Below are positions 1 through 37,291 of a stretch of 37,291 bases of DNA, one piece after another; positions within the stretch are counted from its first letter, which is position 1, and each line of letters begins with the position of its first letter. Source of the DNA: an uncultured virus (IMG/VR IMGVR_UViG_3300042516_001356) (lineage: Duplodnaviria; Heunggongvirae; Uroviricota; Caudoviricetes). The stretch lies in the IMG/VR virus record IMGVR_UViG_3300042516_001356; one strand, written 5' to 3'. The notes under the pieces are model-generated. The model ran no database searches. It was not told the DNA's origin and worked only from the letters and a program-made list of their open reading frames with translations. Made by a program: the position numbers and the translations under genes.

Positions 1-2
1 TA

Positions 3-437
3 AGATATACTGTTAGCAACCTGGGACTATCTATTAACTCTTCATTTAGACAATCAAGGACAGTATCAGAAAATATGACAATTCCATTTTACAATAAAGC
101 AAAAATTATGGAAGATGGTGTTCCAGTTACAATTGCACCAACTAAGGCCAAAGTCTTAAAGTTTAATGGACCAAGTGGTGAAGTATTTACAAGTAAGACA
201 ATTACTGTGGATAACCCTGGTGGAGATATGGTTTATGGCAGTTTTGAAAAAACGGTAGACGAGTTTGTATTAAAATATTTTAAACAATCATTTCTAAAGG
301 CTTCTGGTATTTATGACTATATCAAAAAGCCACAACTATATAAAAAAAATATAAAGACTGGATCAAGAATGGGCAAAATTAAGGGTATTGATACAGGATT
401 TAAATGGATTGCTAATGCAACAATTGGGGTAGAATAA
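3..437 (+). CDS. Virion neck/tail-completion region protein, 5'-truncated by the window edge
   Basis: The frame of ORF 75..437 is open back to base 3 (RYTVSNLGLSINSSFRQSRTVSEN-MTIPF...), so the gene starts upstream. It lies two genes before the major tail protein. Confidence 0.55.
   Translation, partial: RYTVSNLGLSINSSFRQSRTVSENMTIPFYNKAKIMEDGVPVTIAPTKAKVLKFNGPSGEVFTSKTITVDNPGGDMVYGSFEKTVDEFVLKYFKQSFLKASGIYDYIKKPQLYKKNIKTGSRMGKIKGIDTGFKWIANATIGVE
427..435 (+). promoter_or_regulatory. Candidate -10 element (TAGAAT) for a leaderless transcript of the 442 gene
   Basis: GGG-TAGAAT with the hexamer at 430-435, 6 nt before the ATG at 442. No clear SD sequence. Confidence 0.4.
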
Positions 438-441
438 GACC

Positions 442-1014
442 ATGACTATATTAACTGACACTGGATTTCCACCAACCTTTTTAAATAGATATGTTTTGTC
501 TGAGTTGGCTCATTATGAACTTGTAGCAGACTCAGATTTAGTAACGCCAAGCCCAATGATTCCAGCACAGTTTCCAACCAATATTGAAGATTTATATAAT
601 GACAGTATTCAAATTAGACAGACAGAAAGCCCTATCTTAATTGTTTATGATAGATTAATGAGATTTAGGCCTACCCCGTTTTATCTACATAAAAGAGAGC
701 AGTTAATATATTTTATTTATTCTACAGACGTTGGTAAGTTAATAGACTCCGTTCGTGTTATATCTAACGCTCTTGATCGTGAAGACTCATCCGCAGAAGA
801 CGTAAACAGATATAATATTAATAACCCTATACTGGATGCTAATGCAGATATTTCTACTCCGTTTAATCTTATGTTCCACAGTACAAGGGTATACCAGGCA
901 GACGAAAGCAGAGACATAGCAGAACTAGCCTCAGCAAGGACCCTGTTTGTAAACAAGTTAATTGTTGAATATGACTATCATGTTGCAGTTGACTCAGACT
1001 CTAGATATACATAA
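442..1014 (+). CDS. Putative tail terminator / tail-completion protein
   Basis: 190-aa ORF directly upstream of the major tail gene. Assignment is by synteny only. Confidence 0.5.
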   Translation: MTILTDTGFPPTFLNRYVLSELAHYELVADSDLVTPSPMIPAQFPTNIEDLYNDSIQIRQTESPILIVYDRLMRFRPTPFYLHKREQLIYFIYSTDVGKLIDSVRVISNALDREDSSAEDVNRYNINNPILDANADISTPFNLMFHSTRVYQADESRDIAELASARTLFVNKLIVEYDYHVAVDSDSRYT

Positions 1015-1018
1015 AAAG

Positions 1019-1027
1019 CGGTATAAT
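1019..1027 (+). promoter_or_regulatory. Promoter -10 (CGG-TATAAT) for the major tail protein gene
   Basis: Perfect TATAAT at 1022-1027 in the intergenic gap. SD GAGGTGA lies just before ATG 1089. Confidence 0.6.
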
Positions 1028-1088
1028 TGGTTTTAGAGGAAACACGCCAAACAACTTAATAAATACTTTATGAAAGAGGTGAAATAAT

Positions 1089-1730: not shown

Positions 1731-1748
1731 TCTAAACTTAGATTAAAC

Positions 1749-1779
1749 AAAAGCCCACCTTTAATTAGGTGGGTTTTTT
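1749..1779 (+). terminator. Intrinsic terminator after the major tail gene
   Basis: Stem GCCCACCT (1753-1760) / AGGTGGGT (1767-1774), loop TTAATT, followed by a T-tract. Confidence 0.85.
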
Positions 1780-1789
1780 GTTTTGCCTA

Positions 1790-1798
1790 TGATAGAAT
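1790..1798 (+). promoter_or_regulatory. Extended -10 promoter (TGA-TAGAAT), probably leaderless, for the long chaperone gene
   Basis: TGnTAnAAT ends 7 nt before ATG 1806, and there is no SD. Confidence 0.6.
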
Positions 1799-1805
1799 AG
1801 AAATT

Positions 1806-2501: not shown

Positions 2502-2526
2502 AATAATAAAAAAATAATCATCATCA

Positions 2527-2535: not shown

Positions 2536-2562
2536 TGACATAGCCTATAGGAGGAAAAATCA

Positions 2563-2911: not shown

Positions 2912-5900
2912 ATGAGTGATGTTAATGCCAAAATTGGCGTACAAATTGATACGTCGCAGGCGTTAGCGGAACTTAAAGGTTTACAGCGACAGTTAGCACT
3001 ATTCCATACTTCGGTATCAAAGGGTAGTGCTTCTGCTGCTGCTCAACAAAGAAATATGCAGCAGAATCTGCTGAATTCAATAAATGCTACTGGTAAATTT
3101 TCAGCACAAATGGGTGTTGTTAGAACATCTACAGAATCTTTTACACATTCTCTTGAAAAAAATAAACTGTCAATGCGTGAATACTTCCGTTTTGCGGGCG
3201 GTTCAACAAAAACATTTGGAAGATTATTTAAAACAGAGTTTGACACAATTGGCAAGGTAGCGCAAGAGCGTGTAAAAAAATTACAAACACAATATATTAA
3301 ACTAGGCCGTGATGCAAGCGGAGCAATGAAGGCTATCTCTGTTACTCCAACTAGCCTAAACATGAAAGACTATGGCACGCAAATTGCTATGGCAGCACAA
3401 AAACAAGCACTATTTAATCAATTATTAAAACAAGGATCTACCAATCTTTTAAACTTTGGTAAAAACACACAATGGGCAGGTCGCCAACTTATGGTTGGTT
3501 TTACAATTCCACTTGTTTATTTAGGAACTGTGGCTGGCAGAACATTTATGGATCTTGAAAAACAGGCTATTAGATTTAAACGTGTTTATGGAGACGTCTT
3601 TACAACAACGGAACAAACAAATGAGGCTCTTGAAAATATAAAACAACTTGCAGAGTCATTTACAAAGTATGGTGTAGCAGTTGTAGATACAATGAAGATG
3701 GCAGCAGATGCTGCGGCAATGGGTAAAACTGGAGCAGAACTTACTGCACAAGTTGCACAGGCTACAAGACTTGCAGTCCTTGGTGGAGTAGAACAGAGTC
3801 AAGCATTAGAAACCACAATATCAGTAACAAATGCTTTTGGAATAGCAGCAGAAGATTTAGCAAAAAAGATTGACTTTCTTAACGCAGTTGAAAACCAAAC
3901 AGTTGTATCTATTGAAGATTTAACTATTGCAATTCCTAAAGCAGGTCCAGTTGTTAAACAACTTGGTGGAGATGTTGAAGATTTAGCATTTTTCTTGACT
4001 GCCATGAAAGAGGGCGGTATCAATGCATCAGAAGGCGCCAACGCACTCAAATCTGGTCTTGCATCATTAATTAATCCAACAAAAAAAGCAAGCGCCATGC
4101 TTGCAGGGTTTGGTATTAATATTAATGCAATTGTAGAAGGCAACCAAGGAAACATTAGACAAACAGTTATTGACTTTTCAAGAGCCTTGGATACATTAGA
4201 TCCACTTAATCGTGCTCGTGCAATTGAACAGTTATTCGGCAAGTTCCAATTTTCACGTTTATCAACATTATTTCAAAACGTAACAAAAGATGGAACACAG
4301 GCATCAAAGGTACTTGCTTTAACAACAAACTCAGTTGAACAACTTGCGATTATGTCTGAAAGAGAACTTGGAGTTTTAGAGAATGCTGTTGGAACTAAAT
4401 TTAAAAAAGCAATTGAAGATCTTAAGTTAACTCTTGCGCCAATTGGTAAAACATTTTTAGAAGCAGTAACTCCAATTGCTCAATCAATTGCTGGCTTATT
4501 AGATAAATTTAATAATCTTGGAGATGGCACAAAGAAGTTTATAGTAGTAGCAACTACACTGGTTGGAGTTATTGGCCCAGTATTATTAATGACTTTTGGT
4601 TTATTATTAAACGCTGTTGCAAATGGTATTAAATTATTTGCAGTAATGCGTAGTGGATTTTTAAGGCTTGGCGGTAATTCAAAAATCCTTGCAGAACAAA
4701 CAAATTATTTATCAGTAGAACAATTAGAGGCTGCAACAATAGCAGCATCACTAAATCAAAGACATACACAACTTACACAACAGTTTGTAATGGAAGCAGG
4801 TTCACTGAAATTACTTCGTCAGGCATATATTGATGCAACTGCAGCAGCAGCAAGGTTTGCAGCAACAAATCCAGGAATGATGTTACCAGGATTTAGAGGA
4901 ATAAAAGGCGGAGGAACGCAAAAGTTTTCTTCTGGAACTACAGGTGTAGTTGGCGGGGAATCAGGAAAAGATTCTGTACCAGCATTATTAACTCCTGGAG
5001 AAGCAGTAGTTCCAGAGCCAATAGCACAAGACGATAGATTTAAACCATTAGTTGCAGCACTTGTAAGTGGAAAAATTGCACAATATAATGGTGGAACAAC
5101 TGGAGTAAAGCCAGGCTTGGCATTTGGACATGCTGTAGATTATAGACAAGTTTCTGGAGCAAACGTATCAGATAAATTTAGACAACTTGGCTTTGGAAGA
5201 GAAAATCTTTATACGTCCGTTGGCTTTGATATTCCTAAAGAAATGAATGCACAATTAAACAGAACTAATTCAAGAGTAAACATTGATGATTATAGAAAAG
5301 CCCTTCTTAATAACAACTCTTTAAGAACAATGACTTTAAGTCTGGCTAAAAGAGGAATTCCAGATAGAGAAGCATATAAAGTTGCACAACAAATTAGAGG
5401 AAATTTATTAAAATCTTTAAGTGGTTTGCCATCTGGTACTTTAATTAATGACAAAATGATTTACTCTAGAATGGGTAATGAAAGAACTGGAATTATGGGT
5501 GCGCTTGCAAAATCAGGAGATCCAATTATATCTAAAGCAGCAAGATCATTGCTTGGAGCAGCATCTACAAGTGCGGTTGGCGGATCAAAAATTGCAACAA
5601 ATAAATTAAAGCCAATTGATGATGTAATTAAGGCAGTACAAAAAACTCGTTCAAATCCAGTATTGGTTAAAAAATTAAATGAGTTAAAAAAACTTAATCC
5701 AAATCTTCAAATTCCAACTAGCCTAAATAGTGCAGGTGAAATTGTTGCTTATAGAAGACCTGAAATAACAGGTGGAAAAGTTACAGGGAATAATGTAATG
5801 AATGGATTAGTTGATGGAAAGTTTAGATCACAAAGAGAATTTCTAGGTGGTGGACGACAGGTTCTTAAAATTACTAAATCAATGAATGATACCTTTGATA

Positions 5901-8900
5901 GATTAATTAGTAAACAACCTCAAAAAGAAACTGTTGCCGTTAGAGCAAGAGGAGAGTTTAAGCGTGATTCCAGTGGAAAATTAACCGCACTTACTGGACA
6001 AAACACTGAAAGAAAGCCAGCATCGGTTGGAACAACAAGCAGAAATATTGCAGATAATAGAACAACAACTCTTGGTCCAAAAGAAACTGTAGTTCAAAGA
6101 ATTAGAAGAATACGTGGCTTTGCTGATGCTCAAAAGGTTGACAGCAAAGGAGTTCCTTTATCTGAGGCTACATCTAAATTGGCAATGGGTCCTAGAGGTT
6201 TAATTGCTAAACAGCAACAAGAAATAAAAAAACAAAATGAATCAATAAAACAATCAACCCAGGCTACAGATGATCTTACAAAGCAAACAAAAACAGCAAA
6301 ACAAAGTCTGACTGCTTTTAGTTCAAAAGCAACTATGGGCCTTGGCGCTATCTCTGGACTTACAATTGCAGCATCTTTTGCTGGAGGCAAGTTAGGAGAA
6401 ATGGCTCAAACTATAATGCCATTTGTTTTTGGATTACAGGGTATTGCTATGATTCTTCCACTACTCGCTAATCCTTTGGTAGCAGTTGTTGCTGGATTTG
6501 CTTTGGTTGGTGGAGTAATATATAAAATGGGTAAAGATTTAGAAAAAGCAAGGCTAGAAGGAATTAATCTTGCTAAATCAATGAGTATGACTTCAGAAAA
6601 ATTAACTGCTTTATCTGTTATTGCTGGAACTGTAAGTGCAAGTGAAGAGGCTGCAAGAAGAAGAAAAAACATAGTTTCTGGAACAGTTGAAGGACAAAGA
6701 CAGTTTGGACAAAATACATTAGAGAGTGAGTTTGGAAAAGGAATTCTTGCAGATATAGAAAAACAATCTAAAAGTGGTAAATCAATTAAAGAAATATCTC
6801 AAAACCTTGCTAATAATTTAGCAGTTGCAGTTGCACAAGGAGCGGTAACAACAAGTCAAGCAAGAAGCATTTCTGCAGCACTTGGAGAAAAACTTGGAAG
6901 TTATGAAATTCCAGCACTAGTAAGTGGAAAACTTGTAAGTCTGCTTGGTCCAAATGGCGAAAACCTTGCAACAGATCCATTACAGGTAACATTGCAAATA
7001 CAAAAAGATTCTATGCAAAGACAGGCTGACTCTTTTAGAACAGCAGTAGATGGGGCTATTAGTGAATCAACTGGTCCAAATGTATTGGCAAGAGTTGCTG
7101 GCTTTGGATTAATAGCAGCAGGAGCAGCCGCTGCCGTTCTCACCGCAGGCGCTGCTGCAGTTCCAGGTGCAGCCCTTGCCGCTACTGGAGCGGGATTGAT
7201 GCTTGGAGGAGAGGCAGACGCTAATAAAAGAAAATCAGTAAATGTTAAACTTGCTGCAGCAGCAGTTGAACTTGGAATACAAGAGGTAGCACAAAATCAA
7301 GGACTTGTAGATTCATTAAATAAACAATATGATTTAAAGTTAAAGTCTGCAAAAACAGAACAAGAAATAAAAACAATTGAAGATCAAAGAAAAGCAGGTC
7401 TTGCTACATTAAATGCAAGTAATGCAAATGCATTAAATTTATTAGTAAAACAAAGAGATCAACTAGGAGGAGAAGCGTTTACTAAAGGAATTAAGGCAGC
7501 AGCAGATGCGATGTATAAAGAAGGTCCAATGGCAGTCTTTAAAGATCAAGCATTAGACGCATTAAATAATTTAAAAGATTCAGAATTTAAAACAGAGTTG
7601 CAGGTAGGTCTTGCATCTGGGCAGGTAGGACCAGCAGTAATTACAAAAATTCTTTCAACTGCAGCAGGAAATAAAGGATTTGAAACAGCATTTAGTCTTT
7701 TAGTTGACAAGCAAGGTCTTGCAGATGCTGCATTAATTGCAGAATTGTTACCATCTGAGGGTGCAACAGATACAACAAGAGCGCTTATGCTTGGATATAT
7801 TAATAACAACAGTGAAGATTTTGATAAAGATATGCAAGCATTAAGTTTCTTAAATCAAATAAATCCTACATATGGAATTACTCTTGATCTTAAAGCCAAT
7901 GGAATACAGCAATTGGCAACGGCTACAAATGCATTAAAACAAATTGAAGGGCTAGATCCCACATTAACTAAAGATGTAGTTGCAAAACTTGCTGAAGAAA
8001 AACCAGGAGAGTGGAAGGCTTTTTATGATCAATGGACAATTTTGTCTGAAGGAAAAGATTTTGTAAATAAAAACCTAAAGGTTGCTTTTGATGTTGTATC
8101 TAACGATCCAAACTTTAAAGGTTTTGAAGGTGCTGCTGGCAAAAGTGCAGCAGAAATTATAGCAAAGGGTGGAATATTACCAGGAGCAATACCAGGTGGA
8201 GGAGTTGTTGAAGATAAGGGTCCTGGCAAACGAGATACAGTGCTTGACGACTTATTATTAAAATTAAAATTATTTAGAAAAGAGTCTGTAAATGCTTTGG
8301 GTGGTTGGAAAGAACTTGTCAAACAACTGGGTAGCGGAAAATCTATAAATGCATTTAAGGGAACTACAAATCAATTACAAGGTATGGGTGCTAACGAAAG
8401 TTTAGTTCAGTTTGCCGAAGGACTTGGTGCAGAAGAAGCAGGAAAATTCTTTGATAAGATTACAAGTAAGGCAAAGAATGGCAAGTTAGTGCTAAACGAT
8501 TATGGTAAATCATTAAACCGACTATTCCCAACAGTTCAGGCGGGTATATATTTAAGACAACAGGACCAGATTACAAGAGAACAAACAACTCAAAATAAAG
8601 CACTATCAATGCTGAGAGCAAGAGGCGTTGATGCCGCTACTGCACTAGAATTAACTGCTGATGCAGCACAAGCAGCAGCGATCGTAAGTAAAGACCTGGA
8701 TGGCAAAGATCTAGAAAAAATGATTGATAGAACTAAAAAGGCTACTGCTGCAACAAAAGAATTTGAAAAAGCATTAAAGGCTACTCAATTTGAAGCAGAT
8801 GAATTATCAGAAGGTGGAGCAGAAGCATTAAGTGAAAATTTTGATTATCAATTTATTGAAATTCAAAAAAAGGCAAAAGATTCATTTAAAAAGATAAATG

Positions 8901-10279
8901 GTATGTCTTCAGAAGCAATAGAATTAAGCATTATGATTGACGAACAAGCAATTAATAAAATTGAAGATGAGATTAATGGAATTAACTTAAAAATTAAATC
9001 TTATAGTCGCACTCTTGACTCAATCGGTAAACAAGAAAGTATTATTACAGAAACTTATGATAAAAAAATTGAATCTTTAAATAAACAAAAAGACGCTCTT
9101 GAATCAATAAAATCAATAAATTCATTTTTGATTTCACAACAACAAAAACAACTTGGCCTTGCTAACGCATTAACTCAAGGAGATATTTCAGCAGCCGCTT
9201 CAATTGCACAAGAAATGCGAGCAAGTTCAGCAGAGGAAGCCCTTAATAGAATGGGTGGAGGATTAGAAAAAGCAACAAGCAACTTAGAACTAGAAAAACA
9301 AAAAGATTTGTCTTTAGTCACCGCTGTTGTTAATGGTGAAAAGTTAACTAGAAAACAAATTGATGCGAAAATTATTACTTTAAACGATGAAATTTATAAT
9401 ATTGAATTAAAACAACTTGAACCTTTACAAAAACAAGCAGATGCAAAAAAGAAATTGCTTTCTGATCTTGATTTTCAAATTTCAAAAGAACAACAATCAT
9501 TAACAATTAATGGAATGACAAGGGCTGAGTGGGACTTTATACAAAGATATACAGATGCAACAAATAAACATCTGAATCAAATAGTAATTGATATAGACAA
9601 GGTTGCCACTTCTTCCACCACAGCAGCAGGTGCGTGGACAAGTATTCTTGCTTCAATGAAGGCTGCATCATCGCTTTCAGGAGCAGTGCCTAGCCCTACA
9701 GCAAAAACTGCAGGTCCTGCAGACTATGATAAAATGCAAAAAGATTTAACAAAAGAATTTACAGATAGGGGAATAGCATCAGGTCCAGCATCAGGCTTGG
9801 CCGCATCATCTGTTAGATTACAGGCCCAAGCCGATGCTTATTTTAAAGCAAATCCAAACATTGATCCATTTACTGGAGCACAGAAGAAAATGTATGGTGG
9901 AAAAATTTTATCTATGGCTATGGGAGGACTAGTTCCTAAATATATGGCTAATGGTGGATCAATTGGCTCTGATACCGTGCCAGCAATGCTCACCCCTGGC
10001 GAGTTTGTAATGAACAAAAAAGCAACCCAGCAGTTTGGCCCATTGCTATCAATGTTGAATGAGTCAAAATATCCTTCAATGATTGGCAATAGAAATAGTG
10101 CCCAGGTTCCAGTTAATAGTATTTCTACATCAATGAATGATAATTCTACAGCAGTGTATAATTATAGTCTGGGATTTAATATTAACGGAAGTAACTCAAA
10201 TCCAAATGATATTGCTAGGGCAGTAATAAGAGAAATTAAAAATGTTGATTCACAAAGAATTCGGGGGCAAAGAATATAA
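2912..10279 (+). CDS. Tape measure protein
   Basis: 2455 aa, Ala-rich and helical, with a TP901-type TMP core (~aa 210-450), several hydrophobic segments and a C-terminal GSDTVPAMLTPGEFV motif. It follows the chaperones. Confidence 0.95.
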   Translation: MSDVNAKIGVQIDTSQALAELKGLQRQLALFHTSVSKGSASAAAQQRNMQQNLLNSINATGKFSAQMGVVRTSTESFTHSLEKNKLSMREYFRFAGGSTKTFGRLFKTEFDTIGKVAQERVKKLQTQYIKLGRDASGAMKAISVTPTSLNMKDYGTQIAMAAQKQALFNQLLKQGSTNLLNFGKNTQWAGRQLMVGFTIPLVYLGTVAGRTFMDLEKQAIRFKRVYGDVFTTTEQTNEALENIKQLAESFTKYGVAVVDTMKMAADAAAMGKTGAELTAQVAQATRLAVLGGVEQSQALETTISVTNAFGIAAEDLAKKIDFLNAVENQTVVSIEDLTIAIPKAGPVVKQLGGDVEDLAFFLTAMKEGGINASEGANALKSGLASLINPTKKASAMLAGFGININAIVEGNQGNIRQTVIDFSRALDTLDPLNRARAIEQLFGKFQFSRLSTLFQNVTKDGTQASKVLALTTNSVEQLAIMSERELGVLENAVGTKFKKAIEDLKLTLAPIGKTFLEAVTPIAQSIAGLLDKFNNLGDGTKKFIVVATTLVGVIGPVLLMTFGLLLNAVANGIKLFAVMRSGFLRLGGNSKILAEQTNYLSVEQLEAATIAASLNQRHTQLTQQFVMEAGSLKLLRQAYIDATAAAARFAATNPGMMLPGFRGIKGGGTQKFSSGTTGVVGGESGKDSVPALLTPGEAVVPEPIAQDDRFKPLVAALVSGKIAQYNGGTTGVKPGLAFGHAVDYRQVSGANVSDKFRQLGFGRENLYTSVGFDIPKEMNAQLNRTNSRVNIDDYRKALLNNNSLRTMTLSLAKRGIPDREAYKVAQQIRGNLLKSLSGLPSGTLINDKMIYSRMGNERTGIMGALAKSGDPIISKAARSLLGAASTSAVGGSKIATNKLKPIDDVIKAVQKTRSNPVLVKKLNELKKLNPNLQIPTSLNSAGEIVAYRRPEITGGKVTGNNVMNGLVDGKFRSQREFLGGGRQVLKITKSMNDTFDRLISKQPQKETVAVRARGEFKRDSSGKLTALTGQNTERKPASVGTTSRNIADNRTTTLGPKETVVQRIRRIRGFADAQKVDSKGVPLSEATSKLAMGPRGLIAKQQQEIKKQNESIKQSTQATDDLTKQTKTAKQSLTAFSSKATMGLGAISGLTIAASFAGGKLGEMAQTIMPFVFGLQGIAMILPLLANPLVAVVAGFALVGGVIYKMGKDLEKARLEGINLAKSMSMTSEKLTALSVIAGTVSASEEAARRRKNIVSGTVEGQRQFGQNTLESEFGKGILADIEKQSKSGKSIKEISQNLANNLAVAVAQGAVTTSQARSISAALGEKLGSYEIPALVSGKLVSLLGPNGENLATDPLQVTLQIQKDSMQRQADSFRTAVDGAISESTGPNVLARVAGFGLIAAGAAAAVLTAGAAAVPGAALAATGAGLMLGGEADANKRKSVNVKLAAAAVELGIQEVAQNQGLVDSLNKQYDLKLKSAKTEQEIKTIEDQRKAGLATLNASNANALNLLVKQRDQLGGEAFTKGIKAAADAMYKEGPMAVFKDQALDALNNLKDSEFKTELQVGLASGQVGPAVITKILSTAAGNKGFETAFSLLVDKQGLADAALIAELLPSEGATDTTRALMLGYINNNSEDFDKDMQALSFLNQINPTYGITLDLKANGIQQLATATNALKQIEGLDPTLTKDVVAKLAEEKPGEWKAFYDQWTILSEGKDFVNKNLKVAFDVVSNDPNFKGFEGAAGKSAAEIIAKGGILPGAIPGGGVVEDKGPGKRDTVLDDLLLKLKLFRKESVNALGGWKELVKQLGSGKSINAFKGTTNQLQGMGANESLVQFAEGLGAEEAGKFFDKITSKAKNGKLVLNDYGKSLNRLFPTVQAGIYLRQQDQITREQTTQNKALSMLRARGVDAATALELTADAAQAAAIVSKDLDGKDLEKMIDRTKKATAATKEFEKALKATQFEADELSEGGAEALSENFDYQFIEIQKKAKDSFKKINGMSSEAIELSIMIDEQAINKIEDEINGINLKIKSYSRTLDSIGKQESIITETYDKKIESLNKQKDALESIKSINSFLISQQQKQLGLANALTQGDISAAASIAQEMRASSAEEALNRMGGGLEKATSNLELEKQKDLSLVTAVVNGEKLTRKQIDAKIITLNDEIYNIELKQLEPLQKQADAKKKLLSDLDFQISKEQQSLTINGMTRAEWDFIQRYTDATNKHLNQIVIDIDKVATSSTTAAGAWTSILASMKAASSLSGAVPSPTAKTAGPADYDKMQKDLTKEFTDRGIASGPASGLAASSVRLQAQADAYFKANPNIDPFTGAQKKMYGGKILSMAMGGLVPKYMANGGSIGSDTVPAMLTPGEFVMNKKATQQFGPLLSMLNESKYPSMIGNRNSAQVPVNSISTSMNDNSTAVYNYSLGFNINGSNSNPNDIARAVIREIKNVDSQRIRGQRI

Positions 10280-19253: not shown

Positions 19254-19561
19254 TGGCTGAACGCAAAGACCGTATGGCTTTGCTCAGTAGATACAATAAG
19301 TTGCATCTACAAAGATATGAAGCCAAAAGCAACATGAATCTTAATGTTGAACAATGGGCTGCAGATGCTCTTGTTGAATCTTATAGCATTTCTCAATGTT
19401 ATGATTTATTAGATTATTATTTTAAGATAGCGGAAAATCCTACTTGGAATTATTTTGCATACAATGCAGAAAAAATTCTTAATGGTAAAATAGAAGTAGA
19501 GCAAGATATTAAAGAACGAGAAGAGCGAAGAAAACTAGCAAGAAAGTGGATTAGTGAATAA
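19253..19561 (+). CDS. Hypothetical protein upstream of the helicase (possible loader/initiator)
   Basis: 102 aa, coupled to both neighbours. Function is inferred from position only. Confidence 0.5.
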   Translation: MAERKDRMALLSRYNKLHLQRYEAKSNMNLNVEQWAADALVESYSISQCYDLLDYYFKIAENPTWNYFAYNAEKILNGKIEVEQDIKEREERRKLARKWISE

Positions 19562-25988: not shown

Positions 25989-26991
25989 TATACAAGATGT
26001 ACTAGCACAGTTAGACCCAAGAATTAGAAAACGTCTTGGCACAGGAGAGGGAATTAATTTTGAGTATCAGCCCACTCCAAGTTTTGGTTTAAATCGTGCT
26101 CTAGGTGGCGGATTGCCATACGGAAGGCAGGTTCTTGTTTGGGGTAGCAAGTCATCTGCAAAATCTTCTATGTGTCTACAAATGATTGCTTTAGCACAAA
26201 AAGAAGGCAAGACTTGTGCATGGATTGATTCTGAAATGTCCTATTCAGAAGATTGGGCTAAACAAATGGGGGTAGATCCAACAAAATTAATTTACTCACA
26301 AGCACGTACTATTAGCGACATGGTAGATGTTGGTGTTGGACTTATAAATGCTGGAGTTGATCTTATTGTTATTGATTCAATTACATCAATGCTTCCTGCA
26401 ATATATTTTGAAAAAGATTCAGACGAAATGAAAGCACTTGAAAATACAAAACAGATTGGTGCAGAGTCTAGAGATTTTAGCAATGCCTGGAAAATGCTTA
26501 ACTATGCCAACAACAAGGTAAAACCGACATTGCTTGTTCTTATTTCACAATCAAGAAATAACATTAATGCGATGTACACAAGTCAACAGCCTTCTGGCGG
26601 TCAGGCTACAAAATTCTATTCATCTTGCGTAATTAAATTGTTTTCTTCTGAGTCAGAAAATCAAGCAATTAAAGGAAAGATTAAAGTGGGAGATAAATTA
26701 ATTGAAGAAAAAATTGGTAGAAAGATTCGTTGGGAACTACAATTCTCTAAAACCTCTCCAGGGTTTCAATCTGGTGAGTATGATTTTTATTTTAGAGGTG
26801 ACAATATTGGTATTGATGCAATAGGGGACTTAGTTGATACCGCAGAATCAATGGGATTAGTCAATAGAACTGGAGCATGGTATCAGTTAGATGATGGAAC
26901 AAAGGTGCAAGGTCGTGATGGGTTTATAGACCGTGTCAAAGAAGACCTAATTTTACAAGAACAACTTAAGGCAAAAATAATTAATGCTTGA
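25978..26991 (+). CDS. recA: RecA/UvsX-like recombinase
   Basis: LNRALGGGLPYGR, P-loop variant GSKSSAKS, AWIDSE, Walker B IVIDS, SGGQATKFYSS and GAWY...QGR. Confidence 0.9.
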   Translation: MSVNIQDVLAQLDPRIRKRLGTGEGINFEYQPTPSFGLNRALGGGLPYGRQVLVWGSKSSAKSSMCLQMIALAQKEGKTCAWIDSEMSYSEDWAKQMGVDPTKLIYSQARTISDMVDVGVGLINAGVDLIVIDSITSMLPAIYFEKDSDEMKALENTKQIGAESRDFSNAWKMLNYANNKVKPTLLVLISQSRNNINAMYTSQQPSGGQATKFYSSCVIKLFSSESENQAIKGKIKVGDKLIEEKIGRKIRWELQFSKTSPGFQSGEYDFYFRGDNIGIDAIGDLVDTAESMGLVNRTGAWYQLDDGTKVQGRDGFIDRVKEDLILQEQLKAKIINA

Positions 26992-27789: not shown

Positions 27790-28653
27790 ATGGCTAAAAA
27801 CTTACTAAAACAGGTTATGATTAAAGATACCAAAAAGAAAAAAAGAAATAGCGAAGAAGACGAAAGTCTTGTTGAAGGTTTAGATACTGCCATAAATGCT
27901 GGCTATCTTACTAAAACAAAACCAAAGTTTACTAAGAAAAATAATTTTTCTGCATCTGGTTTGACTTATGGCGCAGGTGAGTGTCCAAGATATTGGCACC
28001 TAGGGTTTGATGGACAAATATTTTATGATAACTCAGACGCCATTGGCGTAGCAAATAGAACACAAGGAACTCTCGGACATGGAAGAATACAAGATGCAAT
28101 AGAGGCTTCTGGTTTACTTGCACAAGATTTAGAGTTTGATCCAATACCAAGAAAATATAGCAAGCAAACTCACCCAGCAATGGAGTTTAGAGTTAAAACT
28201 GATGATCCACCTTTTGACGGGTATGGAGATGTCATGATTGACTATAAAGGTGAAAGACTTGTTGGTGAAATTAAAACAATAAGAAACGACGACTTTGAAC
28301 ATAAAAAATTAAGTAGAAAACCTAAAATGGGTCACTTAATGCAATTACTAATGTATATGAAGGTTTGGAAAATTGGCAAGGGTGTAATGATTTATGAAAA
28401 TAAAAACAATCATGAACTACTTACATTGCCCGTTGTAGTAAATGATCAGTATCGTACTTGGGTAGATGAAACATTTGAATGGATGAGAGTAGTTTACAAG
28501 AGTTGGCAAGATAAACAATTACCAGAAATTCCTTATCGTTCAAATTCAAAAATTTGCAAAGTGTGTCCTATTCAAAAGGCATGTGCTGAAGCAGGAGACG
28601 GAACAATTAAGATTAAACCTATGAAATTATTAAAGGACGAGAAAGATGAATAA
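27790..28653 (+). CDS. Solo Cas4-like (RecB/PD-(D/E)xK) exonuclease
   Basis: CPR...GTLGH...GYGD...EIKT...QLLMY plus C-terminal CKVCPIQKAC, giving four Cys Fe-S ligands. Confidence 0.85.
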   Translation: MAKNLLKQVMIKDTKKKKRNSEEDESLVEGLDTAINAGYLTKTKPKFTKKNNFSASGLTYGAGECPRYWHLGFDGQIFYDNSDAIGVANRTQGTLGHGRIQDAIEASGLLAQDLEFDPIPRKYSKQTHPAMEFRVKTDDPPFDGYGDVMIDYKGERLVGEIKTIRNDDFEHKKLSRKPKMGHLMQLLMYMKVWKIGKGVMIYENKNNHELLTLPVVVNDQYRTWVDETFEWMRVVYKSWQDKQLPEIPYRSNSKICKVCPIQKACAEAGDGTIKIKPMKLLKDEKDE

Positions 28654-28949: not shown

Positions 28950-29511
28950 TTCAAAAACAGTTTGTGCTATTGATGCAAGCACTAATAGTCTTGCCTTTGC
29001 TATTTTTAATAATAACAATCTAGAAAGTATTGGTAAGATTAGGTTTGAAGGAAATACAAATTATGAAAAAGTTATGGATGCTTGTGCTAAGACAAAAGCA
29101 TTTTTTGAATATTATGGTGGATTTAAAACAATTGTAATTGAGCATACCGTTTTTATGAATAGCCCTAAAACTGCTGCGGATTTGGCTTTAGTCCAAGGTG
29201 CGCTATTAGGAGCAGCAGGACTAACTGGAACAAAGGTTATAGGAACTGTAGCACCAATAACTTGGCAAAACTATTTAGGAAATAAAAAAATAACAAAAGA
29301 GGAACAGGTTGTAATTAGATCAAAGAACCCAGGAAAGTCAGACTCTTGGTATAAAACATATGAAAGACAAATTAGGAAAGAAAGAACTATCAAACTAATT
29401 GAAATTAATTATAATAAAGTTATTAATGATAATGACGTTGCTGACGCTTGTGGTATTGGGCATTGGGCTATTAATAATTGGGACAAGTGGAACACGGTAA
29501 AAAATAAATGA
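28933..29511 (+). CDS. ruvC: RuvC-like Holliday junction resolvase
   Basis: AIDAS, VIEH, LALVQGA and DVADACGI give the RuvC acidic tetrad. Confidence 0.8.
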   Translation: MNNSGNSKTVCAIDASTNSLAFAIFNNNNLESIGKIRFEGNTNYEKVMDACAKTKAFFEYYGGFKTIVIEHTVFMNSPKTAADLALVQGALLGAAGLTGTKVIGTVAPITWQNYLGNKKITKEEQVVIRSKNPGKSDSWYKTYERQIRKERTIKLIEINYNKVINDNDVADACGIGHWAINNWDKWNTVKNK

Positions 29512-30968
29512 AACATGTGAAAAGTTTAACTGTTGTTGGTGGGGGAACTGCTGGCTTAATTTCTGCACTTATTTTAAAAGAACGTAGCACTTTAGAGGTT
29601 AATTTAGTATATTCTTCAAATATTGGAATTGTTGGTGTAGGAGAAGGATCAACAGAACATTTTAGAGAGTTTATGGATTTTGTTGGAATTAAAGGTAGTG
29701 AAATCATTACAGAATGTGATGCAACATTTAAGATTGGAATTATGTTTGATGGCTGGATTAAAAATAAAAAATATATGCATACGGTTGGTCCACCATTTAG
29801 CAATATAGTTGGTCAATATTCACACGTATACGCAAAACAAATATCTGAAGGCTTACAATACATTTATCCAGATAGTGTTTTACAAAATAAAGTTATTGCT
29901 CAAGCAATAAACATAGATAATACACCAGTAACAAATCAATATCATTTTAATACATTTAAATTAAATGATTTTTTAAAAAAGAAAGCAATTGAAAAAGGAA
30001 TCAATGTTTTTGATGATAATATTTTATATGTTGAATTAGATCAAAATGGATTTATTGATTATGTAGTGGGAGAAAAAAATAAATATAAAAGTGATTTTTA
30101 TATAGATGCAACAGGATTTAAACGAGTTTTAATGAATAAATTAGATGTTAAATGGAAATCTTTTAATAAATATTTAAAATTGAACTCTGCAATTACATTT
30201 CCAACTGTTGACGAAGATAATTATAATTTTTGGACATTAGCAAAAGCCATGGATTCTGGTTGGAGATTTAAAATACCAACTTGGGGACGACATGGAAATG
30301 GATACATATATGATAATAATTTTATAAATGCCGATCAAGCAAAGTTAGAAGTAGAAAAAGAACTTGGTTACAAAATAGAAGTTGGAAAAACTTTTAATTT
30401 TGATCCAGGGGCTTTAGAAACTGTATGGACGAAAAATTGTGTTGCAATGGGATTAAGTGGATGTTTTTTTGAACCACTAGAGGCAACATCAATTGGATTA
30501 ACTATTCAACAAAGTTTTTTATTAATGCATAGACTTCAAAATTATAACGAAAGAGTTATAAAAGAATATAATGAGTCATTTGAAAATATTACAGAAAATA
30601 TTAGAGACTTTATTGTTTTACATTATTTAACAAAAAGAAATGATACCGAATTTTGGAAAAATATTTTAACTATAGACATACCAGAATCTTTAAAATATAA
30701 TTTAGAAAAATGGAAAACAAAACTTCCAATTAAAGAGGATTTTAGAAAAGATTCTTCTTATGCTATGTTTTTACCATTAAACTTTGTCGTTGTCATGGCA
30801 GGTCTTAATTTGTTTGACAATGATGCAATTTTAAACGAGTATCAATTTTTATCAAAAAATATAAAAAATAATGCAGAAATAATGATTAATTCAGCGGTTT
30901 TTCAAGATCAGTCTAAACAATACTTAAATCATAAAGAAATAATTAAAATTATTAGAGGGATAGGTTAA
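29508..30968 (+). CDS. Flavin-dependent halogenase, tryptophan-halogenase (PrnA/RebH) family
   Basis: GGGTAG, GVGEGS, ATFK (catalytic Lys position), YHF, DFYIDATG, GWRFKIP, GNGYIY, FFEPLEAT, DFIVLHY and TEFW. Confidence 0.88.
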   Translation: MKHVKSLTVVGGGTAGLISALILKERSTLEVNLVYSSNIGIVGVGEGSTEHFREFMDFVGIKGSEIITECDATFKIGIMFDGWIKNKKYMHTVGPPFSNIVGQYSHVYAKQISEGLQYIYPDSVLQNKVIAQAINIDNTPVTNQYHFNTFKLNDFLKKKAIEKGINVFDDNILYVELDQNGFIDYVVGEKNKYKSDFYIDATGFKRVLMNKLDVKWKSFNKYLKLNSAITFPTVDEDNYNFWTLAKAMDSGWRFKIPTWGRHGNGYIYDNNFINADQAKLEVEKELGYKIEVGKTFNFDPGALETVWTKNCVAMGLSGCFFEPLEATSIGLTIQQSFLLMHRLQNYNERVIKEYNESFENITENIRDFIVLHYLTKRNDTEFWKNILTIDIPESLKYNLEKWKTKLPIKEDFRKDSSYAMFLPLNFVVVMAGLNLFDNDAILNEYQFLSKNIKNNAEIMINSAVFQDQSKQYLNHKEIIKIIRGIG

Positions 30969-32108: not shown

Positions 32109-32634
32109 AATAGAATTAATTCAACATCTTGATGAAGTAAACAAAGTTGTTGCAGAATATCTTAAAGGCCAAGATCCTACAAAAATTTCTAAAGATTTGG
32201 ATATGCCAAGAACTCGTGTTGTTGCATTAATTAATGAATGGAAAGTTATGGCATCTGCCAATGACGCTATACGTGCTCGTGCAAAAGAAGCCCTTGCTGG
32301 AGCAGATGCACACTATAGCAAATTAATTACAAAATCTTATGAGGTTATTGATGAAGCATCAATGACAAATAATCTTAGTGCAAAAACTCAAGCAATTAAA
32401 TTAGTTATGGATATAGAAAAATCTAGAATTGAAATGTTACAAAAGGCTGGACTTCTTGAAAACAAGGAACTAGCAGAAGAAATGGTGCAGATTGAACGTA
32501 AACAAGAAGTTCTCATTGGAATTCTTAGAGACGTTGCTTCTGAGCATCCAGAGGTTCGTGATTTAATTATGCACCGTCTTTCTGAAATTGCTAAAGAGGG
32601 AGAAGTGATTACCATTGTCCAAGATGTTCAATGA
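32098..32634 (+). CDS. terS: Putative terminase small subunit
   Basis: N-terminal HTH (YLKGQDPTKISKDLDMPRTRV) and a coiled coil, overlapping the large-subunit gene. Confidence 0.7.
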   Translation: MSTEIELIQHLDEVNKVVAEYLKGQDPTKISKDLDMPRTRVVALINEWKVMASANDAIRARAKEALAGADAHYSKLITKSYEVIDEASMTNNLSAKTQAIKLVMDIEKSRIEMLQKAGLLENKELAEEMVQIERKQEVLIGILRDVASEHPEVRDLIMHRLSEIAKEGEVITIVQDVQ

Positions 32635-34399
32635 TTTTTTTGAGGTACTAAAAGAAAAACAATTTGAAGAACAGCCAGTAGATGCAAAGACATTTGTTGA
32701 GTCTTCTGATTATTTGGGGCAGCCACCGCTATCATCAATTCAATATGACATTGTAGAAGCAATGAGTCAAATATATAAAAAAGAAGACTTGCAAGAATTG
32801 TATGGCCCAGTAGAAGGCGCAAGATATTATGACAAATATACTAAAAATGAAATTATTTTACAACTAGGAAAAGGCTCTGGTAAAGACTTTACCTCTACGG
32901 TTGCCTGTGCCTATATTGTATATAAGTTGTTGTGTCTTAAGGATCCCGCTAGATATTTTGGAAAGCCAAGCGGAGATGCAATAGATTTAATTAACGTTGC
33001 AATAAATGCACAGCAAGCAAAAAATGTTTTCTTTAAAGGTTTTAAAAGTAAGATTGAAAGATCACCATGGTTTGCTGGTAAGTATAATGCTAAAGCAGAC
33101 TCAATAGAGTTTGATAAATCAATTACAGTTTACTCTGGACACTCAGAAAGAGAATCGCATGAGGGATTAAACTTATTACTTGCAGTGCTTGATGAAATTT
33201 CTGGTTTTGCATCTGAAGTTGGAACTGGCAATGAGCAAGGCAAGACAGCAGAAAATATTTACAAAGCGTTTCGTGGCTCAGTTGATTCTCGCTTTCCAGA
33301 TTTAGGCAAAGTAGTATTACTTTCATTCCCTCGTTATCAAGGTGACTTTATTTCAAAAAGGTATGAAGATGTTATTATGGAAAAAGAAATAATTGAAAAA
33401 AAACATACATTTATTATGAACGAAGACTTACCGCATGATGACGTTAGCAATCAATTTGAGATTATCTGGGAAGAAGATTCTATTATTTCTTACAAGGTAC
33501 CAAAAATATTAGCATTAAAAAGACCTACATGGGAAGTAAATCCTACTCGCAAAATAGATGATTTTAAATTAGCATTTTATACAGATTTGGGTGATGCAAT
33601 GATGCGTTTTGCCTGCGTACCAACCTTTGCCTCAGATGCATTCTTTAAACAAAAAGAAAAATTAGAAAAATGCATGAACACAAGAAATCCACTAGACTCT
33701 TTTAGAAGGTTTGATGAAACTTTTAAAGCAGATCCAGAAAAAATTTATTACATCCATGCTGACCTTGCACAAAAACACGATAAGTGTGCAGTAGCAATTG
33801 CTCACGTAGATAAATGGGTTAATATTCAGGTTATTAAAGATTATGAACAGGTAGCCCCCATTGTTGTTGTTGATGCTGTGGCCTGGTGGGAGCCAAGAGC
33901 AGAAGGACCAGTAAATTTATCAGAAGTAAAACAGTGGATTATTAACTTACGCAGAGAAGGTTTTAATATTGGAATGGTTTCTTTTGATAGGTGGCAATCT
34001 TTTGATATCCAAAATGAATTACAGGCTGTTGGAATTAAAACAGAAACTGTATCAGTTGCTAAAAAACACTATGAAGATTTAGCGATGATGATTTACGAAG
34101 AACGTGTTGCTATTCCTATGATCCCAATTCTGTTAGAAGAAATGTCAGAATTGAGAATAATGAAAGGTAACAGAGTTGACCATCCACGTAAAAAATCTAA
34201 AGACTTGGCTGATGCGGTTTGTGGAGCGGTATTTGGAGCAATTTCTCATACAGCAAGGACTAATAATACAGAGATAGATGTCCACACTTGGAGTTCTGCA
34301 ACAAGACTTGCAGAAAAACAACAACTTATGGTAGAATTAGATAATCGGGAAATGCCTAACGATGTTAAGGATTTCCTGGATAAATTAAACTTAATATAA
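32615..34399 (+). CDS. terL: Terminase large subunit
   Basis: TTG start. Walker A GKGSGKD, Walker B AVLDE, coupling motif LSFP, and nuclease motifs IHADLA, FDRWQS and DLADA. Confidence 0.92.
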   Translation: MSKMFNDFFEVLKEKQFEEQPVDAKTFVESSDYLGQPPLSSIQYDIVEAMSQIYKKEDLQELYGPVEGARYYDKYTKNEIILQLGKGSGKDFTSTVACAYIVYKLLCLKDPARYFGKPSGDAIDLINVAINAQQAKNVFFKGFKSKIERSPWFAGKYNAKADSIEFDKSITVYSGHSERESHEGLNLLLAVLDEISGFASEVGTGNEQGKTAENIYKAFRGSVDSRFPDLGKVVLLSFPRYQGDFISKRYEDVIMEKEIIEKKHTFIMNEDLPHDDVSNQFEIIWEEDSIISYKVPKILALKRPTWEVNPTRKIDDFKLAFYTDLGDAMMRFACVPTFASDAFFKQKEKLEKCMNTRNPLDSFRRFDETFKADPEKIYYIHADLAQKHDKCAVAIAHVDKWVNIQVIKDYEQVAPIVVVDAVAWWEPRAEGPVNLSEVKQWIINLRREGFNIGMVSFDRWQSFDIQNELQAVGIKTETVSVAKKHYEDLAMMIYEERVAIPMIPILLEEMSELRIMKGNRVDHPRKKSKDLADAVCGAVFGAISHTARTNNTEIDVHTWSSATRLAEKQQLMVELDNREMPNDVKDFLDKLNLI

Positions 34400-34415
34400 A
34401 CTAATAAGGAGAAAA

Positions 34416-36017
34416 ATGAATTCATTTAAGAAAATCGCTTTAGTCATGGCTGCAGCCTTGTCTATTAGCACCTTAACTGCAACTCAGGCAAATGCTGTGC
34501 ATAATGCAGACTCTCTTACTATTGATACAGTGTCAAGCACTATTTCAACAGGTGAGACTGCAACGGCAGTAGCAACATTGTCTTTTTTGGCAGGTAATAC
34601 TGGAGATACTCTCACGGTAACTTCATCAGTTGTAAGTCTTCCAACAGGGGCTGCTAAATTAGCAACTTTGTCTGTAAAAGAAACAACTAGCGCTGTAGTT
34701 GTTGTAGCAGCAGATTTATATTCGGCTGATGTTTCCTCATCCGTAAATGCTCTTACCTCAGTATCCACAAAGTTAAATGTAAGCCTAGTAAACCCAACGG
34801 TTGCTGGAACTTATGTTATTAAATTAACTCCATCTGTAAAGGGTGGTGGAGGAACATTAAATTCTTCTGCTGTTCTGTGGTCAGTTGTAGTTAGTGCAGC
34901 AGATGTAAAAGCATCTGCATCAAATTCAACATCTATTATTAACTCTGGAGAAACAATCACAGCAACTGCTGACGCAACTGTTTTTGCCCCAAAGACTGTA
35001 TCTTCTGATGCTGCTGCGGTAATCGTAGTAACACAAAAGAATGCTGCTGGAACATCTGTTTCAGAATCTTTGATAGCAACAGTTTCAGGTTCTGGTCTTA
35101 TTGGAACTGGTTCAAACCACGCAACAATTTCAGCACTAGGACGTTCTATTTCAGTCGCTGCTGGCAACTACATTGGTGTATTTGCTGATGGTACATCTGG
35201 AGTAGGAACAGTTACAATTACAACACAATCTGGTGTGGTGCTTGGAACAGAATCAATAACATTTTATGGTGATATTGCCAAGGTAGTAACTACAGTTAAG
35301 AAGCCTGTAATTTCTACAGGATCAAATGCTGATGCTATTTCTGCAATTGCCTATGATTCAAGTGGTGTAAAGGTTGGTGCTGGAACACTTTCAGCAACAT
35401 CAGATGCGTTATCTATAGTTAGCAACTCTGCAACAACTGCTTCCATCGTAAATGGTGAAGCACTGTTCTCACTTACTGGTGTTGCAACTGGTAAGGCTGG
35501 AATTGTTGTAAAAAGTGGAACAATTGTTGCTGATACAGTAACTGTTCGTGTAGAAGGAACTGCATCATCTGTAAAGGTTGCTTTTGATAAGACAACATAT
35601 GCACCAGGTGAGGCTGCAACAATCACATTGTCAGTTCTTGATGCAAGCGGATTGGCTTTATCTGGAAAAACTAATACAAACGTATTAACAGATGGTGGAA
35701 TTTCAACAAATTATGCATTTGGTTCAGGTAGCGATACTTTAACTGCAACATCTGTAACAACAGACGCTAACGGTGTAAAGATTTACAAAGTATTTATGCC
35801 AGCAGTAGAGGGTGATATTAAAGTTACTGCAAAGGGTGGATCATTACTACCAACTGCTGGACAGGTAGAAGTATCTGCATCAGCAACAGTGGTAAGTCCT
35901 GCTACAGTTGCACTTACACAAATTGCTGCTTTAACAGCAACAATTGCATCTCTACGCACCTTGATTGTTACATTAACAAACTTGGTTCTAAAGATTCAGA
36001 AGAAGGTAAAGGCTTAA
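34416..36017 (+). CDS. Secreted Ig-like/beta-sandwich surface protein with a Sec signal peptide
   Basis: MNSFKK + hydrophobic core + ANA cleavage site. The body is Ala/Thr/Ser/Val-rich and the C-terminus is an amphipathic basic helix (LTNLVLKIQKKVKA). SD AAGGAG, with its own terminator. Confidence 0.8.
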   Translation: MNSFKKIALVMAAALSISTLTATQANAVHNADSLTIDTVSSTISTGETATAVATLSFLAGNTGDTLTVTSSVVSLPTGAAKLATLSVKETTSAVVVVAADLYSADVSSSVNALTSVSTKLNVSLVNPTVAGTYVIKLTPSVKGGGGTLNSSAVLWSVVVSAADVKASASNSTSIINSGETITATADATVFAPKTVSSDAAAVIVVTQKNAAGTSVSESLIATVSGSGLIGTGSNHATISALGRSISVAAGNYIGVFADGTSGVGTVTITTQSGVVLGTESITFYGDIAKVVTTVKKPVISTGSNADAISAIAYDSSGVKVGAGTLSATSDALSIVSNSATTASIVNGEALFSLTGVATGKAGIVVKSGTIVADTVTVRVEGTASSVKVAFDKTTYAPGEAATITLSVLDASGLALSGKTNTNVLTDGGISTNYAFGSGSDTLTATSVTTDANGVKIYKVFMPAVEGDIKVTAKGGSLLPTAGQVEVSASATVVSPATVALTQIAALTATIASLRTLIVTLTNLVLKIQKKVKA

Positions 36018-36034
36018 AACTCCTTATAAAAATT

Positions 36035-36064
36035 GAGGGTAGATTAATTTCTACCCTCTTTTTT
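36035..36064 (+). terminator. Intrinsic terminator
   Basis: Perfect 9-bp stem GAGGGTAGA / TCTACCCTC, loop TTAATT, followed by T6. Confidence 0.9.
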
Positions 36065-36075
36065 ATTGCATAAAA

Positions 36076-36084
36076 TGATATAAT
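36076..36084 (+). promoter_or_regulatory. Extended -10 promoter (TGA-TATAAT)
   Basis: Consensus motif just downstream of the terminator and upstream of the last CDS. Confidence 0.65.
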
Positions 36085-36123
36085 AGTATTGTTAGATATG
36101 GGGGCTAACGTAAAGGACCCCAA

Positions 36124-37291
36124 ATTAAAAAGTTGTTTATTAGGTTAAGTTTAATAGCATTATTATTGTTTATGTGGACCTTGCTGTCCCCAACAGAAAA
36201 AGCACATGCTGAAGAGACTGTACAACTAGAGACAACTAACCAACCCATACTAGATACTGCCACCGTGGTAGCCCAAACTATAGAGTCAGCAACTGCTGCT
36301 ATTGCTCAGGCTGAAACTGCCACGGCAGTCATAGAAATCCAAGCAACAGCCATTACAAGCCCTACAGAGACCATTACAGCCACTATCACACAGGCACAGG
36401 ACTCAATATTACAGGCTCAAACAGTAGTAGATAGTGCTACTGTGGCTGTGGCTCAGGTTGATTCTGCTACCGTTTTAGTTGCTGAGGCTGAAGAAAATGT
36501 TGCTATTGCAGAAATAGCGGTAGAGTCTCAAACAGCAGTAGTAGAAGACAAGACATTGGTTTTAGAATCAGCAACAGCAGTGGTTGAGGCTAACACAACT
36601 CCTGGATTAAATGTAACAATATATCATAATCCTGGAACAAACAACATGCCAGCCATGGGTGGAAATGTTGTCTATACTGGTACAGATACAGATGGAATTG
36701 ATGAGCAGTATGGTAGTTCAGGACCAACAGTAAATGGTGCAACTACCACAACAACAGTAACTGAAACATTTGCTGGTAATCGTTTAAATACATCTATTGG
36801 AATCACAGTAAATGGAACCCCTGTTTCTACTGAAAATAATAATAATGTATATATAGGATCAATCGGATTCCCTGGTCCTGGACAAGATCCTTCTCTAACA
36901 CTTATAGGTTCAACTGCAGATACTCTTATAACTATGCCAGCAAACACAACCTCTGCAAGTTTCCAGGTTTTTGCTAAAAATGGTGATCATAATGCCGTAG
37001 TTACATATACTGACGGAACTACAAGTACTTTTAGTATTCAGCATAATGTTAGTCAGGAATACCCAAACTATGTTCATCAAGAAACAATTACTGCACCAAC
37101 AGGAAAAACTATTGCAACAATAAATATTCCTGCCAACTGGGATTATTATGGAGTAGACAATGTGTCTGCTACGAGCCAGGTTACTTCAACAACAACAGTG
37201 GCAGAAGATTTCCAGGTTAAGTGGGAAGGTATTTGGACACCACAAACAACAGGAACACAGTACATAACTGCACCAGCAGATGATGGAGTTC
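36124..37291 (+). CDS. Secreted PA14-domain protein, 3'-truncated, probable ATT start (absent from the ORF track)
   Basis: The frame is open from 36109 to the window end. It encodes signal peptide IKKLFIRLSLIALLLFMWTLLSPTEKAHA, an A/T/V/E-rich stalk, and PA14 motifs GLNVTIY...IDEQYGSSGP...EDFQVKWEGIWTPQTTG...ADDGV. Confidence 0.8.
   Translation, partial: MKKLFIRLSLIALLLFMWTLLSPTEKAHAEETVQLETTNQPILDTATVVAQTIESATAAIAQAETATAVIEIQATAITSPTETITATITQAQDSILQAQTVVDSATVAVAQVDSATVLVAEAEENVAIAEIAVESQTAVVEDKTLVLESATAVVEANTTPGLNVTIYHNPGTNNMPAMGGNVVYTGTDTDGIDEQYGSSGPTVNGATTTTTVTETFAGNRLNTSIGITVNGTPVSTENNNNVYIGSIGFPGPGQDPSLTLIGSTADTLITMPANTTSASFQVFAKNGDHNAVVTYTDGTTSTFSIQHNVSQEYPNYVHQETITAPTGKTIATINIPANWDYYGVDNVSATSQVTSTTTVAEDFQVKWEGIWTPQTTGTQYITAPADDGV

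Follow-up and report, generated by a model that had tools for sequence, protein, structure and literature searches.

Restriction-site avoidance by phages is in itself a textbook phenomenon. In Rusinov 2018 (PMC6286503), site elimination is described mainly at orthodox Type II sites and in non-temperate double-stranded DNA (dsDNA) phages. Poirot 2019 (bioRxiv 10.1101/712018) describes enterobacterial phages of 345-359 kb that are free of GCGC, which was attributed to HhaI-like restriction, and some pandoraviruses that are free of AGCT, for which no explanation is given and a restriction-modification (R-M) model was rejected by the authors. Here, the record IMGVR_UViG_3300042516_001356 of an uncultured virus (Caudoviricetes) was analysed for missing four-base palindromes. 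The whole stretch of 37,291 nucleotides is referred to as the window. AGCT, TCGA, CCGG and CGCG are absent from it, and its relatives lack the same or other sets of palindromes. No published account of palindrome avoidance in this clade was found in open-access full text.

Elimination of AGCT from the window

AGCT was searched for on both strands and no match was found in the window, as a preliminary description of the sequence had claimed. The number of sites expected from base composition (zero-order) is 117 and the maximal-order Markov expectation is 120.3 (z = -15.4, the lowest value among the 256 tetramers). In 100 dinucleotide-preserving shuffles of the window, AGCT occurred on average 163.2 times (sd 11.2). 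Synonymous codons were also shuffled within each of the 33 open reading frames (ORFs), which leaves proteins and codon usage unchanged; 300 such shuffles gave 149.2 ± 9.8 copies, with a minimum of 124. The two findings by which the preliminary description said that it could be overturned, a count near the Markov expectation and a similar depletion of the non-palindromic AGCN and NGCT words, were not obtained: the latter words have observed/expected (O/E) ratios of 1.21-1.72. Their excess is in part an arithmetic consequence of the absence of AGCT.

The codon pairs of the window ORFs were then counted. GCT is never preceded by GAA, AAA or CAA and is preceded by GAG, AAG and CAG 13, 14 and 12 times, respectively, with the three A-ending codons overall about 3-fold more frequent than their G-ending synonyms. 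Any codon ending in A precedes GCT in 0 of 291 cases and GCA in 243 of 543. After AGC, no codon starts with T (0/87), NAG is never followed by CTN (0/458), and Ala-Ala is never written GCA-GCT. The dodging of the site by codon pairs, noticed earlier by eye, was thus borne out by the counts. Elimination of AGCT is complete and was reached via synonymous codon and codon-pair choice.

Other words missing from the window

AGCT is not the sole missing palindrome; three others had been overlooked. TCGA was expected 22.5 times from the Markov model and 33 ± 5 times from the synonymous shuffle, CCGG 15.7 and 19 ± 4 times, and CGCG 11.3 and 12.7 ± 3.3 times; none of them occurs in the window. GTAC (53 copies against 82.7 ± 7.2 in the synonymous shuffle) and ACGT (61 against 82.1 ± 6.8) are partly depleted. 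The earlier statement that other palindromes are present was correct for GATC, GGCC, TGCA, CATG, CTAG and GCGC; for GTAC, which does occur, it has to be qualified by this partial depletion.

Among 5-mers and 6-mers, none is eliminated except words containing AGCT, TCGA, CCGG or CGCG. GTGCAC, TGCGCA and GRGCYC have no copy in the window, with expectations of merely 4-10. No sign of a relaxed-specificity nuclease was seen, the one-mismatch neighbours of AGCT being without depletion. Avoidance of RGCY (CviJI-type) was considered and rejected: RGCY is low solely through AGCT, and GGCT and AGCC are enriched.

Distribution of the purged palindromes in the clade

Three related records were counted in full: G001, the nearest to the window (57,683 bp), G002 (104,477 bp, estimated to be 96% complete) and G003 (109,757 bp, complete, with direct terminal repeats). 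AGCT is absent from all three, against 177, 313 and 343 expected copies, respectively. CGCG (0 observed/17 expected), TCGA (0/39) and CCGG (0/24) are also missing from G001. In G002, TCGA (0/70) and CCGG (0/52) are missing and CGCG is reduced to 2/43; in G003, CGCG is missing (0/56), CCGG is reduced to 8/86 and TCGA is present.

A first collection of relatives comprised 80 loci with a DnaE-type DNA polymerase 80-100% identical. AGCT is absent from 76 of them, with 58 copies observed in total against 3,969 expected, and 55 of these 58 copies fall in the loci L072 and L078. The leftover sites in L030 and L057 read AAGCTG, CAGCTT and CAGCTG. CCGG is absent from 80/80 loci (0 against 429 expected), and CGCG was found 4 times in total against 355 expected. 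A second collection was seeded with the divergent polymerase of L072 and added 76 loci, five of which are second copies of earlier contigs. A word was scored as eliminated in a locus when 5 or more copies were expected and at most 10% of them were observed, and as not eliminated when at least 30% were observed (Table 1).

Table 1. Elimination of four-base palindromes in the 149 DnaE-bearing rows. Changes are parsimony minima on a midpoint-rooted FastTree DnaE tree, for which the support values are local only.
Word	Eliminated	Not eliminated	Minimum changes
AGCT	137	12	4
TCGA	44	98	7
CCGG	75	3	2
CGCG	50	2	1
GGCC	24	113	9
GCGC	9	131	2
ACGT	3	133	3
GATC	2	147	1
CATG	1	148	1
GTAC	1	148	1

In the comparison with related phages, which had been proposed as a check, AGCT is eliminated in 137 of the 149 rows. 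Of the 16 four-base palindromes, ten count as eliminated in one lineage or more, in differing combinations; TGCA, CTAG, AATT, TTAA, ATAT and TATA are eliminated in none of the 149 rows. L168 and L169 keep AGCT and are without GATC, GGCC, GCGC, CCGG and CGCG. L173 and L176 also keep AGCT and are without TCGA and CCGG, and in L176 also CGCG. CATG is missing from L167 (0 against 64 expected). L164 and L165 purge no palindrome, and their AGCT counts are 58 and 92 for 57 and 106 expected, respectively. Non-palindromic words, pooled with their reverse complements, were used as controls: elimination was scored in 352 of 2,221 palindrome cells and in 3 of 17,865 cells of non-palindromic words, each of the three being CCCG/CGGG.

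CpG is low across the freshwater clade (O/E 0.45-0.69), including L164 and L165. This clade-wide shortage is not due to the purged palindromes alone.

The region of G003 at about 70,000-90,000 (L084-L085) holds all eight CCGG sites of that record and 13 of its 31 GGCC sites, with AGCT and CGCG still at zero. The same 20-kb stretch has a higher G+C content (0.38-0.41) and small minus-strand ORFs (DUF932, GP88, tRNA-Asp). It resembles a module that was acquired recently from a pool of phages facing other restriction pressures. The non-palindromic CATCC/GGATG, a Type IIS site of the FokI/BtsCI type, is moderately low (O/E about 0.5-0.6) in G001, G002, G003 and the window; this shortage may stem from partial avoidance or reflect a codon effect.

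Selection on AGCT and search for protective enzymes

In order to follow substitutions around AGCT, positions were scored where the window word is one substitution away from the palindrome and its three remaining letters are the same in G003. Between the window and G003, 81 substitutions at such positions led to other bases and none to AGCT. For the control palindromes, the site was reached in 32 of 78 (GATC), 62 of 161 (TGCA) and 35 of 74 (CTAG) substitutions, roughly 40-47%. Comparison with G002 gave a like picture; its single event towards AGCT is an alignment-gap artefact, since G002 holds no AGCT. Avoidance of AGCT is under purifying selection that is still acting.

The DNA methyltransferase families PF00145, PF01555 and PF02086 each had no match in the five large relatives (six records in all); the same searches were positive in 9-13 of 14 control genomes. 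No match to a restriction-endonuclease family was found in 32 of the 33 window ORFs (all except the tape measure ORF) and 109 of the 127 G003 ORFs. The remaining 18 ORFs of G003 are counterparts of window ORFs.

Gene content, relatives and habitat

The window is 98% coding and every ORF lies on the plus strand (Table 2). A single-stranded DNA-binding protein (SSB) and a Holliday junction resolvase are also encoded. Nothing marks the Cas4/RecB-like exonuclease as a restriction enzyme. The halogenase gene sits between the RuvC-like gene and a gene for a conserved 214-amino-acid protein (30972-31616) that has a ferredoxin label in PHROGs and no Pfam hit. It was found in the window and G001, not in G002 or G003, and in 9 of the 63 loci that cover both flanks. 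Its nearest Atlas clusters are mostly viral and gave no host lead.

Table 2. Features of the window.
Position	Strand	Feature	Support
1..37291	.	Free of AGCT, TCGA, CCGG and CGCG on both strands	Counts compared with expectations of three kinds
2912..10279	+	Tape measure protein, 2455 aa (amino acids); marks a long-tailed siphovirus	phrog_10030, E 8e-96
10915..15423	+	Minor tail protein, 1502 aa	phrog_10359, E 8e-61
19554..20780	+	DnaB-like replicative helicase	phrog_19, PF03796
20731..21696	+	DnaG-type primase	phrog_47, PF01807, PF13155
22701..25988	+	DnaE-type DNA polymerase III alpha; marker for collecting and treeing relatives	
25978..26991	+	RecA/UvsX-like recombinase	
27790..28653	+	Cas4/RecB-like PD-(D/E)XK exonuclease, in recombination module as in phage BillNye	
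28927..29511	+	RuvC-like resolvase	
29508..30968	+	Flavin-dependent (tryptophan-type) halogenase; accessory insertion, also without the four purged words	
32615..34399	+	Terminase large subunit (TerL), 54% identical to Streptomyces BE-cluster phages	

When 25 kb of the window were compared with cultured phages by megablast, no match was obtained. Among cultured phages, the closest relatives are those of the BE cluster of Streptomyces phages (Stanwilliamsviridae), with 55% identity in DnaE and 54% in TerL. At this divergence, the window is described here as a relative of the Stanwilliamsviridae and not as a family member. A DnaE relative is encoded by at least 598 IMG/VR contigs. WhiB (PF02467) scored above the cut-off in 5/5 large related records including G001, its gene lying outside the window; among the 14 control genomes, it was found in Corynebacterium only. 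In a tblastn search, WhiB matched 172 records of cultured phages, and each of these phages has Streptomyces, Mycobacterium, Rhodococcus or Gordonia as its host. Sequencing runs with near-identical sequence are labelled lake-water, freshwater or plain metagenome. The phage from which the window comes is a WhiB-encoding siphovirus of about 105-110 kb from lake metagenomes. No integrase was seen in the window and G003 ORFs scanned as above, and the phage is apparently virulent. Its hosts are likely to be planktonic freshwater Actinobacteria.

In G003, a GlcNAc-transferase (PF11397), a 2OG-Fe(II) oxygenase (PF13640, presumably prolyl-hydroxylase-like) and a DUF6065 protein are encoded at L085:14983-17249 and L085:11354-12085, a few kb from a collagen-repeat protein. 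Together, these proteins could serve to glycosylate hydroxyproline in a collagen-like fibre. Six Gly_rich_2 paralogues, five of them with fibronectin type III domains, lie at L084:7495-14760, L085:17648-18862 and L086:100-1296; they may form a diversified family of surface or receptor-binding proteins.

Explanation of the missing palindromes

We consider it quite probable that the missing words reflect multi-site restriction-site avoidance, directed against several host Type II-like specificities and upheld by ongoing purifying selection. This reading is drawn from the complete elimination of palindromes and of palindromes only, the synonymous route by which it was reached, the differences between relatives, the active upkeep and the search for phage methylases, which found none. 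Unmodified phage DNA would escape Type II-like restriction by holding no recognition sites, not by being methylated, and in the lineage of the window the purged set would be AGCT, TCGA, CCGG and CGCG. Any new mutation creating one of these palindromes would be removed by selection, because one site is enough for a host endonuclease to cut the genome as it enters. The constraint would be absorbed by synonymous codons and codon pairs, so that proteins are unaffected. Sister lineages would meet hosts with other restriction repertoires and come to hold other purged sets. The selective agent would be a set of host restriction endonucleases, and the purged words may serve as a fingerprint of host defence. 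In the preliminary description, strong long-term selection by an AGCT-specific activity had been proposed. Strong, long-term selection at the DNA level stands, the avoidance being complete, palindrome-specific, genome-wide, kept across more than 20% nucleotide divergence and free of substitutions to AGCT (0/81). The limitation to AGCT was given up, since the window lacks three further palindromes and relatives lack GGCC, GCGC, ACGT, GATC, CATG or GTAC.

Several points weigh against avoidance of host restriction. The cognate enzymes are putative, and the hosts are assigned from WhiB and kinship with actinophages. Four short contigs of the clade (L096-L099) occur in species-representative metagenome-assembled genomes (MAGs) of GTDB labelled Beijerinckiaceae, Acetobacteraceae, Flavobacteriia and Polynucleobacter; these labels are unrelated and so give no host, and the contigs are most likely mis-binned contaminants. 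Even deeply divergent relatives share the avoidance of AGCT, CCGG and CGCG, whereas R-M systems usually vary between strains. In Hiraoka 2019 (PMC6329791), seven Actinobacteria MAGs from Lake Biwa, 17-77% complete, are reported with 0 methylated motifs and 0 methyltransferase genes. The sparse published data on acI and other freshwater Actinobacteria show few candidate matching methylases. Single-molecule real-time (SMRT) sequencing is poor at detecting 5-methylcytosine (m5C). According to Okazaki 2022 (PMC9426551), R-M genes of lake bacterioplankton often lie in within-population deletions and may escape MAGs. The Lake Biwa result is softened by this weakness of SMRT for m5C, by the partial MAGs and by the location of R-M genes in variable regions.

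On sequence evidence, classical restriction would not be told apart from a methyl mark that is read by a modification-dependent nuclease. Host methylases, either solitary or belonging to R-M systems, would then mark the sites on progeny DNA, and Type IV nucleases of the next host would cut the marked DNA; a phage without the sites would escape marking. The signature in the sequence would be identical, and most of the purged words are classical targets of m5C methylases (AluI, HpaII/MspI, BstUI/FnuDII, HaeIII, HhaI), which counts in favour of such marks, as does LanE-43, annotated with a McrA-like HNH nuclease (COG1403, a generic COG). We nevertheless regard this course of events as unlikely: site-specific host methylases, equally unobserved, are still needed, TCGA and GATC are usually N6-methyladenine (m6A) sites, and the deamination products of m5C are not enriched (O/E 1.07-1.13 for AGTT and 1.02-1.04 for AACT). 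It is very improbable that the phages themselves encode methylase-free nucleases which shred host DNA at palindromes and spare a phage genome without sites. The five large relatives have no methylase genes, many ORFs are without assigned function, and the conserved avoidance of AGCT, CCGG and CGCG resembles a lineage trait, all of which would suit such nucleases. The ORF scans described above, however, gave no restriction-endonuclease family match, three to five specificities per phage with at least 20 changes among close relatives would be unparsimonious, and the Cas4-like, RuvC-like and resolvase nucleases lie in a module syntenic with that of BillNye, which keeps AGCT.

A cause outside defence, be it mutational bias, a DNA-structural or RNA-level constraint or an assembly artefact, is close to excluded. 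CpG is low throughout the clade, also where no palindrome is purged, and the deficit of CCGG, CGCG and TCGA is for this reason partly compositional. Yet the Markov and synonymous-shuffle nulls contain this bias and still give 11-33 expected copies for 0 observed, and non-palindromic words of like composition are spared. The missing words also differ between close relatives, AGCT in L164 being as frequent as expected. An artefact is opposed by the repetition of the absence in independently assembled contigs and in sequencing runs from 10 studies, in which at least 83% of the sampled words are present.

Avoidance of host restriction at several sites would place this widely recurring lake phage clade among the cleanest multi-site cases, with more than 100 kb of genome without up to four or five tetramers. 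The repeated change of the purged set among close relatives would provide a sequence-only read-out of the restriction specificities of the hosts, and purged sets could split the uncultured clade into host-defence types. DNA of the clade should resist digestion by AluI, HpaII, BstUI and TaqI, which might allow its enrichment from viromes. Planktonic freshwater Actinobacteria are seen as streamlined bacteria with few defences. Such avoidance is at odds with how little evidence of Type II R-M there is for the dominant freshwater Actinobacteria, and this conflict points to m5C systems that lie in the flexible genome and are missed by MAGs and SMRT methylomes. It is conceivable, if rather unlikely, that planktonic freshwater Actinobacteria carry a widespread and long-lived activity that cuts DNA at AGCT, CCGG and CGCG and has escaped both SMRT methylomes and the usual searches for Type II R-M genes. 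The idea arises from the tension between the long-conserved avoidance on one side and usually volatile R-M systems with few published matching enzymes on the other. Candidates would then be m5C systems that lie hidden in the flexible genome, or restriction of a new type that needs no methylase or works by base excision; the purged-palindrome barcodes would give the specificities of this activity and divide the clade according to the type of defence in its hosts.

Comparison with known systems

The gene order of the window is that of phage BillNye: tape measure, tail, DnaB, primase, SSB, DnaE, RecA, resolvase, RecB-like exonuclease, RuvC and terminase. WhiB is shared by BillNye and other BE-cluster phages with the clade of the window. 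In 50 kb of BillNye (L100, record positions 30000-79999), GATC is eliminated (0 against 145 expected), whereas AGCT (252/295), CCGG, CGCG and TCGA are kept and the other four-base palindromes are near expectation. This cultured relative practises single-site elimination, a like strategy with another word. The two phages differ in G+C content (53% in BillNye, 35% in the window) and in CpG O/E (0.97 and 0.49, respectively).

The pandoraviruses described in Poirot 2019 resemble the window in that AGCT is wholly absent, that this absence is clade-specific and that it was reached by undirected substitutions. They are eukaryotic giant viruses that lack AGCT alone, whereas the window belongs to a bacteriophage that lacks several palindromes in an R-M-type pattern. 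The GCGC-free enterobacterial phages of the same source are also large and entirely without a tetramer, but a single word is concerned and their hosts are known and cultured. Closest in kind are phages treated in Rusinov 2018, with (near-)complete loss of Type II-type palindromes; in the present clade, too, no self-methylase was found. The present case differs in that four tetramers have been purged at once and that the purged set can be traced as a changing 'barcode' over about 150 uncultured relatives.

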